A DNA stretch of 64,000 nucleotides from a bacterium (GTDB lineage Bacteria; UBA8248): positions 288,001-352,000 of the forward strand of contig OZ241875.1 in assembly GCA_965203325.1 (NCBI GenBank). The letters run 5' to 3'. Positions within the stretch are counted from its first letter, which is position 1; each line of letters starts with the position of its first letter. Positions 34,401 to 37,400 of the stretch are shown here, in pieces. Made by a program: the position numbers.

Positions 34401-37400
34401 CTCTTTCATATCATAGCACTCGCCGTTGAGGGTTCGAATCCGCATAATCAGCCACACCTCAAACAGCATCTGAAGAAAGGTCTCAAATTAGGCTTACACC
34501 CGGAAGAAATAGCTGAAGCACTTATGGTCTGCGTAAACCCGGCGGGCTCCAAGGTCCTCACGTATGGCGTCACCTGTATGCTCGAAGCAATGGATGAACT
34601 CAAAGCCGAGGGTTGGACATATCCCGACTAAATAGCTATTTCTCTTAAGCACATCTTTTGAGGCTCACGCTTCTGCTCGAATTGCCTCTTCACGCAATGG
34701 AGAATAAATACCGATATATGTGATGGGTGTGGGGGCATCCAGTCGATGCGGCACTCCTTTGGGTATGTGAACCACCTGACCCGCTTTGACATTGCGCGTT
34801 TCACCGGCGACTGTAAACGTAGCTTCGCCCTTCATGAGATATACGAGTTGCTCCACATCATGAGTATGGTCCTGTTCCGTTCCTCCCTCTCTTTCGATAT
34901 ACAACATCATGACCTGCTCGCCGACGACGAGCCTGCGCTCCCTACCCGGCATCTTTTGGGGTTCAATTTCCGCCAGATCATAGAAATATTGCATCAGCCT
35001 ACTCCTTTTGGTTTACGTTTCGAATAGATTTTCAGATTGTTGACTTTTGGAGCCACAATCGCAAAATCATCACAAAACCCGCCTTGCAATCACACACCCA
35101 TCATCCCTAGAATCCTCTCCTGTTTCGTCGAACCTCCGCAGTTTACTAGAGGATAAATTCTTGGTGAATACCGACATCCGAGTTCGCTTTGCTCCATCCA
35201 ACACGGGCCACCTCCATATCGGTGGCGCGAGGACAGCACTGTTTAACTGGTTTTTTGCGAAACATCACGAAGGCACAGCCATTTTAAGAGTCGAAGATAC
35301 CGACCGGCAACGCTCTACGGAAGAATACTACGACGCAATCCTGGAAGCATTCAATTGGCTGGGTCTTGAATGGGATGAAGGCCCATATCGTCAATCTCAG
35401 CGGATGGATTTATACCAAGAAGCAGCCAATAAACTCCTATCTTCCGGCCATGCCTATCGGTGTACGTGCACACCAGATGAAGTGAACGCAATGCGTGAAC
35501 GAGCTCGCGCCGAGGGGAAAACACCGAAATACGACGGCACCTGTCGGGATCGATATGACAAGGACCCGGGTATTCCATTTTGCCTTCGCCTCCGGGCGCC
35601 TGATACCGGAGAAACCATTGTCAACGACATCCTTGCCGGAGAAGTATTGTTCGAGAATTCACAACTCGACGATATGGTCATCGTCCGAACTGATGGGACA
35701 CCCACATACAATTTTTGCGTGGCTATCGATGACATCGATATGAAGATTAGCCATGTGATCCGCGGCAACGACCATCTATCCAATACCCCCAGACAAGTTC
35801 TCGTCTATCGGGCCTTGAATGAACCCACACCAAAATTCGCACATATATCGATGATATTGGGACCCGACAAAAAAAGACTTTCAAAGCGTCATGGCGCAGA
35901 TTCGGTATTGGAATACAAAGAGCGCGGCTTTCTCCCCAATGCGTTGATCAACTATCTCGTTCGTCTCGGGTGGAGTCACGGGGATCAAGAAATTTTCTCC
36001 AAAGAAGAAATTATCGCAAAATTTTCCTTAGAAAATTTGAACAGGTCTGCCGCGATCTTCAATCCGGAAAAATTATTGTGGCTGAATCAGGAATACATTA
36101 AATCGACTGATAGTGATTTCCTCGTCAAATCGCTCGATACAGGTCTTAAGGAGCTGGGCTTATCACCAGAGCTACTCACACATGGAACACGCAAGGGCAT
36201 TGTGGATGAACTCAGAACCCGTTCGAGAACTTTAACGGATATGATAGATGGCGCTCGTTTTTTCTTTGAAAATGAAATCGAGTTGGACGAGAAAGCTGCA
36301 TCGAAATTCCTGAATTCCGAAAGTTCGAGTCTAATCATGAAATTGCGGGATGAACTCACCAATATCGATACATTTTCAACTGAAAACGTTAAATCGGCTT
36401 TTCATCACGTAATGGAAGAAGAAGCCGTAAAGCTCGGCAAACTGGCTCAACCCGTACGCGTCGCCATTACGGGCGGAACCATCAGTCCCGGTATCTTTGA
36501 AACACTCAGCCTTCTTGGAAAAGAGGAGAGTCTCCACCGCCTCGACGCGGCTTTGGCCAGAATCAATCAATAATTGACTTCACCATCGTCCTTGACGAAT
36601 AAAGAACTCATACATATAAACATCTAGGTTTTTGGGGGATCGTCTAGCGGCAGGACACCAGACTCTGGATCTGGGTACGGAGGTTCGAATCCTCCTCCCC
36701 CAGCCACTCAATTCTTACGAGTTATATTCGGCGCACGGAATTTCGTAGTATTCTTTCATCCTTTATCCAAGGAGATGACAATGACTCTAAGAATCAATGA
36801 TGAAGTACCAGATTTTTCCGCCGATACGACCCAAGGCTCTATCAATTTTCATGAATGGATCGGTAATGGCTGGGCCATCATATTTTCGCATCCAAAGGAC
36901 TTTACACCCGTATGCACCACGGAACTCGGGACTATGGCCGGACTCAAGCCGGAATTCGATAAAAGAAACTGCAAAGTGATTGGCATCAGCGTCGACGGAG
37001 TTTCCGACCATGAGAAATGGTCGAAAGATATCGAAAGCTCTCAAGGGCATGCTGTGAATTATCCCCTGATTGGCGATCCCGAACTTAAAATCGTTAAAGC
37101 CTTTGACATGCTGCCTGCCGACTCAGGCGACACCTCAGATGGCCGGACGGCCGCAGATAATGCGACGGCACGCTCGGTTTTCGTTATCGGGCCGGACAAG
37201 AGAATCAAGGCGACGCTCACCTATCCAATGAGCACGGGCCGGAATTTCAGCGAAATCCTGAGACTGCTCGATTCCTGCCAGTTGACGGCCAGTGAACAGG
37301 TGGCGACCCCGGCGAACTGGCAACAGGGCGAAGATGTGATTATTTTGCCGGCTGTCTCGGATGAGGATGCGAAGAAGAAATACCCGGAGGGGTGGGAATC

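Follow-up and report, generated by a model that had tools for sequence, protein, structure and literature searches.

How is the codon CAA translated in a bacterium whose only glutamine tRNA carries the anticodon CUG? By textbook wobble rules, this anticodon reads CAG, not CAA. The question was raised by a tRNA-Gln(CUG) gene in the window, the 64-kb stretch of DNA analyzed here, which belongs to the genome G000 of genus g1. The survey's finding was an ancient loss of the tRNA-Gln(UUG) gene, which would oblige the CUG tRNA to read CAA, either with an edited or modified C34 or by reading A directly; all the tests run in this work agreed with that reading, and no other decoder was found. Related genomes were compared in a set of 51, comprising 44 of families f1-f3 and 7 of the sister family f4. 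Wobble rules and large surveys alike describe U34 tRNAs as indispensable for A-ending split-box codons; one survey of 319 bacteria calls the U34NN tRNAs "mandatory" and reports that all, or almost all, of the species possess them (PMC4041420).

The tRNA-Gln(CUG) gene and the neighbouring gltX

The only tRNA called by ARAGORN in the window was a tRNA-Gln with anticodon ctg, located at 36633..36706 on the plus strand and 74 nt in length with the encoded CCA. The cloverleaf scored 61.1 bits with the Rfam model RF00005, whose cut-off is 29, and the Gln-specific covariance model R1 scored the gene at 97.1 bits. Direct reading of the sequence revealed a U1-A72 pair, a 7-nt D-loop and a 4-nt variable loop. 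The anticodon stem (CCAGA/TCTGG) was formed by five Watson-Crick pairs, C27-G43, C28-G42, A29-U41, G30-C40 and A31-U39, and the anticodon loop consisted of C32, U33, C34, U35, G36, G37 and A38. The anticodon CTG was placed by ARAGORN at gene position 33, which corresponded to 36665..36667 of the plus strand, with the wobble base C34 at 36665. This position was C with no variant listed in the contigs of four public runs, contigs being blind to editing and to rare variants. The anticodon is thus of the NUG form, and U1 and A72 were invariant across an alignment of 24 Gln tRNAs from the phylum; the U1-A72 pair is taken here to be an amidotransferase identity element of bacterial tRNA-Gln. Additionally, a 24-mer taken from the tRNA's 5' half was common to many phyla, and the 119 stretches containing it gave 119 CTG and 1 TTG.

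The tRNA gene started 59 nt downstream of the gltX ORF (35047..36573, plus strand), which encoded a GluRS of 508 aa with an uncertain start codon and matched the Pfam families tRNA-synt_1c (347 bits) and Anticodon_2 (119 bits). The gap between gltX and the tRNA contained nothing resembling a promoter or a terminator, and in 29 of 30 related loci gltX immediately preceded the tRNA; the arrangement suggested that the two genes are probably co-transcribed. As the single match to PF00749 in the genome, gltX was the sole gene of the GluRS/GlnRS family, so that a GlnRS was not encoded, and GatB was encoded elsewhere in the genome (GatB_N, 394.7 bits). Judging from this gene content, the gltX product is presumably a non-discriminating GluRS which charges tRNA-Gln(CUG) with Glu for GatCAB.

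Absence of tRNA-Gln(UUG) from G000 and most f1-f3 relatives

The G000 assembly was one contig of 4,392,711 bp with 60.4% GC and no N. A 739-aa ORF spanned both contig ends and a terminal duplication was absent, which fitted a circular closed record. ARAGORN made 56 tRNA calls over the whole genome, including one for Gln (ctg) and none with ttg. When introns up to 3 kb were permitted, 79 calls were obtained, again none with ttg, and two of the added calls, reported as Gln(ctg) with an 895-nt intron, were located in a repeat. RF00005 gave 47 matches above the cut-off and one further match at 21.8 bits, which was not a UUG tRNA, and the Gln-specific model matched the CUG gene only, the runner-up being a tRNA-Pro at 64.2 bits. 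Neither short-word BLAST with three UUG-type tRNAs nor a hairpin/T-loop scan of G000 produced a candidate or any trace of a half-gene or anticodon arm, and the group I intron model had no match in this genome. All the remaining two-codon purine boxes of G000, namely Lys, Glu, Leu-UUR and Arg-AGR, contained both a U34 and a C34 tRNA according to ARAGORN. The UUG gene was thus undetected by six methods, and the description of the CUG gene as the only Gln tRNA of a closed genome was confirmed.

The same state was found widely among the relatives. A Gln tRNA was present in 39 of the 44 f1-f3 genomes, of which 36 contained exactly one gene, with anticodon CUG, and C34 was retained in all 36; for the remaining five of the 44, no complete Gln tRNA was detected by the Gln model. 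Eight CUG-only genomes were single contigs (G000, G014, G023, G030, G031, G034, G035 and G039). As previously claimed, a CUG gene 100% identical to that of G000 occurred in 21 of the 22 other genomes of g1, six of the 22 being single-contig, and all 7 genomes of the positive control f4 carried a distinct 75-nt UUG gene alongside the CUG gene. The absence covered three families, within which RpoB identity to G000 falls to 72%, and the age proposed for the loss was borne out by this depth; the UUG-less clade was of order level and took in sponge-associated as well as AT-rich free-living genera. At the level of gene content, this distribution demonstrated a genuine loss of the tRNA-Gln(UUG) gene in the common ancestor of f1-f3. 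These families differ from the bacterial tRNA sets described in PMC4041420, since they are without the "mandatory" tRNA and have kept the "auxiliary" C34 tRNA. The anticodon loop CUCUGGA was identical in the CUG tRNA of f4, which indicated that no change in the tRNA accompanied the loss, and a five-pair anticodon stem was shared by all CUG-type sequences in the alignment.

An exception noted before was also recovered in genus g2, where three of four genomes contained a UUG gene that derives from the CUG type, C34 having changed to T in a duplicate. It resembles the anticodon shift after tRNA duplication which Wald and Margalit 2014 (PMC4041420) describe, also for Gln. The g2 case also bears on whether a real UUG tRNA has merely escaped detection, either unassembled on a plasmid, second replicon or repeat, or unrecognised because it is split, permuted or interrupted by a very long intron. 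Most relatives are metagenome bins which miss some tRNAs, as in the five genomes without a complete Gln tRNA and in G042, which is about five tRNAs short, and plasmids usually remain unbinned. However, the gene was missing in all eight single-contig genomes including the self-closing contig of G000, the same methods recovered it in every f4 genome, G000 showed neither gene fragments nor a group I intron, and the contigs of the four public runs gave one version of the locus. Had g2 already possessed a UUG gene, moreover, it would have had no need to derive one anew from its CUG-type tRNA. An undetected UUG tRNA was considered very improbable.

CAA as a glutamine codon

CAA had been regarded as an ordinary codon in G000, with 8,936 uses or 27.7% of Gln codons, and recounting supported this with 26-29%: CAA made up 7,551 of 29,344 Gln codons (25.7%) in our own gene calls and 10,663 of 36,401 (29.3%) in cruder ones. 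When aligned to orthologues, the CAA codons of G000 corresponded to Q at 39-41%, followed by R, K and E, and the CAA codons of f4 itself corresponded to Q at 32%. In the rpo/ribosomal cluster, Q was found in both f4 genomes at 15 of 34 CAA sites versus 107 of 214 CAG sites. The earlier statement that CAA occupies Gln-conserved positions, also in rpo and ribosomal genes, was in agreement with these data, as conservation of Q was about as frequent as for CAG. By these alignments of G000 codons, CAA was shown to mean Gln. The proposal that CAA is not Gln or is ambiguous, or that it is served by another misreading tRNA or by an imported one, draws on the formal gap alone, namely that no cognate decoder is encoded. 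Against it, the substitution profile of CAA sites matched that of CAG sites and of f4 CAA sites, with Q dominant throughout, and no near-matching anticodon occurred among the other tRNAs of G000 and G042; tRNA import is, to our knowledge, not known in free bacteria. Such a solution seemed scarcely credible.

Genome-wide, the share of CAA was not lower in genomes without the UUG gene, being 26-31% in G000, G039, G008 and G046 and 22-28% in f4. In the rpo/ribosomal cluster, CAA was reduced to 13.9% (40/287) in G000 compared to 25.8% overall and to 14.6% in G039 compared to 30.6% overall, while no reduction was found in f4. The low use of CAA in highly expressed genes had been thought to reflect poor decoding; this caveat held for G000 and likewise for G039, but was contradicted by genus g8. 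A related idea, that g2 is a natural knockout in which the mechanism was lost, CAA became rare and UUG was then re-made, was rejected, since the UUG-less genomes G023 (12% CAA) and G009 (10%) were as poor in CAA as g2 (10-13%) at a similar 68% GC.

Genus g8 has a GC content of 35%. Of its four genomes, G042 and G045 each yielded one CUG gene with the Gln model while G043 and G044 yielded no Gln tRNA, and the UUG pattern search gave no real match in any of the four g8 genomes, with the control G005 recovered. One pattern match in G043 (C3:213810) was dismissed because ARAGORN called no tRNA there and the sequence resembled the 3' end of tmRNA. In G042, 38 distinct tRNAs were found; the Lys, Glu, Leu and Arg sets each included a U34 and a C34 member, and about five expected tRNAs were missing. 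Over 100 kb of this genome, CAA accounted for 583 of 791 Gln codons (73.7%), near the levels of GAA (79%) and AAA (78%). On the g8 contigs bearing rpoB, rpoC and the genes for L11, L1, L10 and L7, the proportion was still 95 of 140 (67.9%), and the tRNA-bearing contigs of g8 were likewise CAA-rich, with 35.6% GC. The use of CAA as the main Gln codon by the CUG-only genus g8 is a new observation of this analysis. Since CAA outnumbered CAG even in rpoB/rpoC and the ribosomal genes, its decoding in g8 must be efficient. The pattern opposite to the surveyed rule is thus stable over three families, including a 35%-GC genus. A CUG-only clade with free use of CAA implied that this codon must be read in a manner not yet described, and we infer that tRNA-Gln(CUG) is the decoder.

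Possible modes of CAA reading by C34

Two modes of reading were weighed. In the main rival to the explanation we prefer, an unmodified or only ribose-methylated C34 pairs with the A of CAA in a protonated or tautomeric form, and no dedicated enzyme is needed because no cognate tRNA competes. This would accord with the lack of an enzyme candidate, with the anticodon loop shared between f4 and f1-f3, and with the fact that G000 and G039, unlike f4, avoid CAA in genes of high expression. It also has a precedent in E. coli, in which UGA is read by tRNA-Trp(CCA) via C:A, and a general "extended superwobble" was proposed on this basis (Fakih et al., NAR 2026; PMC13092985). That study surveyed 11 amino acids, Gln among them, for the proposed reading of NNA by a CNN tRNA, which would make the UNN isoacceptor dispensable; neither a Gln example nor a clade of this sort is mentioned in its main text, and its supplement may list such genomes (PMC13092985). 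However, the published mechanism depends on an anticodon stem of 4 bp, with the 27-43 or 31-39 pair open as the defining feature, and the fully paired 5-bp stem of tRNA-Gln(CUG) indicated that it is not of this four-pair type. Slow near-cognate reading is also difficult to reconcile with g8, in which CAA reached 74% of Gln codons overall and 68% in rpoB/rpoC plus the ribosomal genes, just short of the shares of GAA and AAA. Furthermore, the U34 tRNA lost was that of Gln only, which argues that tolerance of C:A is not a general property of these ribosomes; a general tolerance would be expected to let tRNA-Trp(CCA) read UGA and tRNA-Met(CAU) read AUA. Direct pairing of C34 with A was consequently held possible but rather doubtful. 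If it did operate, an ordinary C34 tRNA with a 5-bp stem would read A efficiently, and the decoding rules and the prediction of codon capacity from tRNA gene sets would have to be revised.

The preferred explanation, to which we assign an even chance when all of its parts are taken together, combines loss of the UUG gene, charging and conversion of C34 by a new or moonlighting enzyme. After the loss in the f1-f3 ancestor, the single tRNA-Gln(CUG) would be charged with Glu by the lone GluRS, amidated by GatCAB, and would supply Gln at both CAG and CAA. In part of the tRNA pool, C34 would be converted post-transcriptionally to an A-pairing nucleoside, permitting efficient reading of CAA, so that CAG and CAA would each obtain a reader from the same gene. 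The conversion might proceed by deamination of C34 to U34 followed by the usual U34 modification, or by modifying C34 in a way akin to lysidine or f5C. Chemical conversion of C34 is in itself a conjecture. It is favored by the specificity of the effect for Gln, as all other U34 tRNAs were kept in G000 and G042. It is disfavored by the failure to find a candidate enzyme, by the identity of the CUG loop with that of f4, and by the halving of CAA in the rpo/ribosomal cluster of G000 and G039, which also fits slow unaided decoding. With simple C34-to-U34 editing, a genomic C-to-T change would be tolerable, yet C34 was kept in all the single-gene genomes. In public metagenome contigs, no anticodon arm with a non-C wobble base was found, a result of little power because the unchanged arm occurred just 3 times. 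If C34 is converted, an unrecognised editing or modification of wobble cytidine in bacteria with a new enzyme activity would be implied, a matter relevant to tRNA biology and to the engineering of base editors.

Several known systems show parts of this behavior. In tRNA-Ile2(CAU), C34 is changed to lysidine by TilS in bacteria or to agmatidine by TiaS in archaea, and a genomically encoded C34 tRNA thereby reads an A-ending split-box codon, as would be the case here. The anticodon here is CUG rather than CAU, and since lysidine reads A only and one gene must serve CAG and CAA, such a modification would have to be partial. The f5C34 of mitochondrial tRNA-Met, made by the NSUN and AlkB families, reads both AUG and AUA, so that one modified C34 serves G- and A-ending codons, exactly the decoding needed here. 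In kinetoplastid mitochondria, imported tRNA-Trp(CCA) is reported to undergo C34-to-U34 editing (PMC8677022), and one gene with an anticodon-loop C likewise gives two RNA species, of which the edited one reads an A-ending codon. C-to-U(-to-pseudouridine) editing at position 32 of tRNA-Tyr by Vibrio cholerae TrcP, as reported in PMC9553926, shows that C-to-U editing of tRNA is possible in bacteria. As a difference from these edited systems, the UUG-less genomes share no deaminase but TadA and probably RibD. We know of no wobble-position C-to-U editing in bacteria, and literature searches agreed.

The known families which alter C34 were then considered across the 51 genomes. TmcA (PF13718), TmcAL (PF05636), TiaS and the AlkB type (PF13532) were each found in 0 of 51, with named control genomes positive in the PF13718, PF05636 and PF13532 searches. 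Of the enzymes behind f5C34 and ac4C34, G000 has only one methylase of the RsmB type (RsmB-F family). Two TadA-like paralogues of G000, which scored 87 and 84 bits where the TadA cut-off is 150, were considered as the deaminase. They were rejected because they are missing from the closed UUG-less genomes G023 and G034 and from g8, g9, f2 and f3; the first had an orthologue in only 16 of the 22 other g1 genomes. A single CDA-fold match was found in many UUG-less genomes, namely G023, G025 and G034 (G023 and G034 being closed) and those of g8, g9, f2 and f3, and in G000 a crude zinc-deaminase motif regex returned no genes beyond the same four. MnmA was encoded, and two weak MnmA-family matches were discarded as other PP-loop enzymes, since on visual inspection they resembled GMP synthase and NAD synthetase. 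As the known C34-altering families were absent or unexpanded, the enzyme, if any, would be a novel one, unless TilS or TadA has acquired a broader specificity. That this order-level clade obtains two decoding tRNAs from a single tRNA-Gln(CUG) gene through a bacterial wobble-cytidine conversion, by an enzyme outside TmcA, TmcAL, TiaS, AlkB and NSUN or by TilS or TadA acting on a second substrate, is a proposition for which we see the balance as level. TilS was present as one gene per genome in 50 of the 51 genomes, in f4 and f1-f3 alike, with no second copy anywhere, and in G000 it was located directly downstream of a tRNA-CAU gene.

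The only glutamine tRNA gene and the CAA codon

The only tRNA gene of the 64-kb window, called by ARAGORN at window 36633-36706 on the + strand, was a tRNA-Gln with anticodon CTG. Read directly, the sequence was 74 nt long with a regular fold and an encoded CCA: the first pair was U1-A72, the D-arm had a stem of 4 bp and a loop of 7 nt, the variable loop contained 4 nt, and the 5-bp anticodon stem (CCAGA/TCTGG) was Watson-Crick at every pair. The anticodon loop was C32 U33 C34 U35 G36 G37 A38, with the wobble C at window position 36665. The gene was located 59 nt downstream of a 508-aa ORF with the catalytic and anticodon-binding domains of GluRS (gltX), just where the survey's finding had placed it, and was followed by a peroxiredoxin gene. 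Because no promoter-like or terminator-like site was found between gltX and the tRNA (together window 35047-36706), and among 30 related f1 loci (L001-L030) 29 had gltX immediately 5' of the CUG tRNA (the exception was a tRNA-Gln(UUG) copy of genus g2), the two genes are likely transcribed together. One GluRS, GatB and MnmA were encoded in the genome (G000) and a search for GlnRS found none, which predicts an indirect route to Gln-tRNA and a capacity to thiolate U34. Given the order conserved in f1, the operon would pair an aminoacyl-tRNA synthetase gene with a non-cognate tRNA that the same enzyme must mischarge. In families f2 and f3 and in 6/7 genomes of the sister family f4, the CUG tRNA adjoined tRNA-Glu(CUC) instead of gltX.

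The genome is a single contig of 4,392,711 bp (60.4% GC), and a 739-aa ORF spanned both contig ends with no terminal overlap, as a closed circle should give. ARAGORN on the whole genome called a single Gln tRNA, with anticodon ctg, and none with ttg, and with introns of up to 3 kb allowed the extra calls were all implausible, with no UUG gene among them. The Rfam tRNA model (RF00005) gave 47 matches above cut-off. A covariance model of 24 Gln tRNAs of the phylum (CUG and UUG types), which separated Gln tRNAs (at least 86.8 bits) from every other tRNA (at most 67.5 bits), matched the window's gene alone, at 97.1 bits. Short-word BLAST with three UUG-type tRNAs returned nothing, nor did scanning for 5-bp hairpins whose loop fits YTTTGRN and that adjoin a T-loop; no group I intron was found. 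Both the closure of the genome and the lack of tRNA-Gln(UUG), the expected CAA reader, were thus upheld, and a UUG gene that is hidden or extrachromosomal seems very unlikely. The remaining two-codon purine boxes each retained U34 and C34 tRNAs (Lys UUU/CUU, Glu UUC/CUC, Leu UAA/CAA and Arg UCU/CCU), so the gap is specific to Gln.

Two 'Gln(ctg)' calls with an 895-nt intron were rejected, both falling within a repeat some 2.2 kb long. This family, outside the window, had at least nine copies of 90-94% identity (for example G000:C1:2558530-2560740, 4234517-4236728, 1256516-1258865, 1990326-1992497 and 709619-711549) and also gave rise to spurious 'tRNA-Ala(cgc)' calls (72/92 nt). An RF00005 match under the cut-off (21.8 bits; G000:C1:1857395-1857467, - strand, outside the window) was rejected because this degenerate, tRNA-like stretch lacked a TTG anticodon; its T-arm was perfect, but its acceptor stem was bulged and a regular anticodon arm was missing, and it may represent either a tRNA in decay or what is left of an integration site. 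Of tRNA-Leu(UAA), the copy at G000:C1:3323690-3323775 (- strand, outside the window; 32.5 bits, T-stem mismatched) is probably decaying; the good copy at 3901831-3901916 scored 56.4 bits.

CAA made up 7,551 of 29,344 Gln codons (25.7%) in the gene set of a home-made self-trained caller (3,347 genes, 78.5% of the genome) and 10,663 of 36,401 (29.3%) in a cruder ORF set, in keeping with the 8,936 uses (27.7%) counted by the survey. When G000 proteins were compared by BLASTP with the genes of four relatives (about 0.2 Mb sampled from each), Q stood opposite 39-41% of CAA codons, with R, K and E ranking next, and opposite 51-57% of CAG codons; CAA codons of f4, where the cognate tRNA is present, faced Q in 32%. 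In the rpo/ribosomal cluster, Q was found in both f4 genomes at 15 of 34 CAA sites and 107 of 214 CAG sites aligned in both. These matches show that CAA means Gln, as had been claimed for rpo/ribosomal genes as well; recoding of CAA, or its reading by another decoder, is very unlikely.

Ancient, clade-wide absence of tRNA-Gln(UUG)

The Gln tRNAs of 51 genomes of the phylum, in which the relatives were mostly metagenome bins, were tallied by combining BLAST matches and retrieved sequences with the Gln model, the latter run phylum-wide under stricter filters. Matches to the window DNA in public runs came mostly from sponge metagenomes. A Gln tRNA was detected in 39/44 genomes of f1-f3, G000 included; the five without a complete one (G011, G020, G043, G044 and G049) were all bins of 67-91% completeness. 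Exactly one Gln gene was present in 36 of the 39, always with anticodon CUG, and eight of these 36 genomes were single-contig. In genus g1, to which G000 belongs, the CUG gene was 100% identical in 21 of 22 other genomes. Three g2 genomes carried a 74-nt UUG gene that shares 88-95% identity with the CUG gene of g1 and was re-created through duplication and a C34-to-T change; the CUG copy was retained beside it in G012 and G013. In f4, 7/7 genomes paired a CUG-type Gln gene of 74 nt with a distinct UUG type of 75 nt. The RpoB identity of G000 was 72% to f2 and 66-67% to f4, which makes the loss old. The absence of the gene is therefore ancient and clade-wide, and the survey's account of g1, g2, f4 and the age of the loss was reproduced in each part.

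Heavy use of CAA was newly found in UUG-less genus g8 (4 genomes of 2.0-2.2 Mb, 35% GC), where it is the main Gln codon. These genomes are bins with some tRNAs missing; the Gln model detected one CUG gene each in G042 and G045 and the UUG type in none of the four, and a UUG anticodon-loop/T-loop pattern that recovered the UUG gene of control G005 hit no real tRNA in 4/4. With every Rfam match read, G042 had 38 distinct tRNAs, about five short of a full set, including U34 and C34 forms for Lys, Glu, Leu and Arg and CUG only for Gln. The g8 contigs bearing the CUG tRNA were 35.6% GC. Over 100 kb of G042, CAA accounted for 583 of 791 Gln codons (73.7%), beside GAA at 79.4%, AAA at 78.2% and A/(A+G) at four-fold sites of 77%, and on g8 contigs with L11, L1, L10, L7/L12, rpoB and rpoC for 95 of 140 (67.9%). 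One candidate, G043:C3:213780-213870 (L266:1470-1560, - strand), was rejected as a UUG tRNA, being called neither tRNA nor tmRNA by ARAGORN; its 9-bp hairpin with loop CTTTGGA, T-arm-like element and GCCA end resemble a tmRNA 3' terminus.

Proposed reading of CAA by tRNA-Gln(CUG)

We infer that the CUG tRNA decodes CAA. Decoding must be efficient, since CAA is hardly avoided in g8, rpoB and rpoC included, and the solution must be specific to tRNA-Gln(CUG), since the U34 tRNA was lost for Gln alone; together these points favour post-transcriptional conversion of C34. The chances are about even that part of the C34 pool is converted into an A-reading nucleoside, either by editing to U or by a lysidine- or f5C-like modification, and the enzyme would be a novel one, or a moonlighting TilS or TadA.

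Outside g8, the CAA share of UUG-less genomes, counted for relatives with our own gene caller on samples of 20-200 kb, tracked GC content (10% in G009, 12% in G023, 26% in G000, G008 and G046, and 31% in G039); f4 genomes, with the UUG gene, gave 22-28%, so the loss brought no genome-wide depletion. In highly expressed genes the share dropped in some UUG-less genomes and not in f4: the rpo/ribosomal cluster compared with the rest of the sampled genes gave 13.9% vs 25.8% in G000, bearing out the under-use reported before, and 14.6% vs 30.6% in G039, against 26.1% vs 27.1% in G004 and 20.0% vs 22.1% in G005, both of f4. Other A-ending codons also dropped in G000 and G039, less than CAA. This avoidance speaks for direct C:A pairing by an unmodified C34, the main rival and a possible but distinctly less probable reading, for which a 2026 paper (PMC13092985) offers support in tRNAs with a 4-bp anticodon stem; the stem of tRNA-Gln(CUG), however, is a canonical 5 bp. 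The anticodon loop of the f4 CUG tRNA was identical to that of G000, and CUCUGGA occurred in 16 of 120 tRNAs from many phyla with the same 5' half.

According to Wald and Margalit (PMC4041420), U34NN tRNAs were mandatory and C34 tRNAs auxiliary across 319 bacteria, and the exception named there is Leu-UAA, not Gln-UUG. The CUG tRNA of G000 would join the C34 tRNAs already known to serve codons that end in A. Full-text literature searches returned neither a bacterial clade with tRNA-Gln(CUG) alone, although the supplement of PMC13092985 may list such genomes, nor wobble-position C-to-U editing in bacteria.

As for enzymes that could convert C34, TilS was present in one copy per genome in 50/51, in f4 and f1-f3 alike; in G000 (G000:C1:71675-73267, outside the window) it sat immediately 3' of a tRNA-CAU gene that probably encodes the TilS substrate tRNA-Ile2. 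TmcA, TiaS, TmcAL and AlkB-type oxygenases were each found in 0/51 genomes, with named control genomes positive. Lacking TmcA and TmcAL, the phylum presumably leaves C34 of elongator tRNA-Met unacetylated; in E. coli and B. subtilis this acetylation guards against AUA misreading. G000 had one RsmB/NSUN gene and four CDA-fold deaminases: TadA (191.8 bits; G000:C1:2537063-2537670, outside the window, adjoining tRNA-Ser(CGA)), a RibD-like protein of 386 aa and two small TadA-like paralogues under the cut-off (87 and 84 bits). The paralogues were rejected as a dedicated C34 enzyme because they were not common to UUG-less genomes, and so none is visible among the handful of families profiled, which also suits direct C:A pairing.

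CDA-fold matches numbered 6-13 per genome in f4 genera g12, g13 and g15, against 1-3 in most f1 genomes. In these f4 genera, TadA-like deaminase genes stood in tandem, four to five per array (G002:C5:132084-134452, G002:C7:491430-493798, G004:C1:4712619-4714601, G003:C114:18270-20113 and G001:C88:12083-13718).
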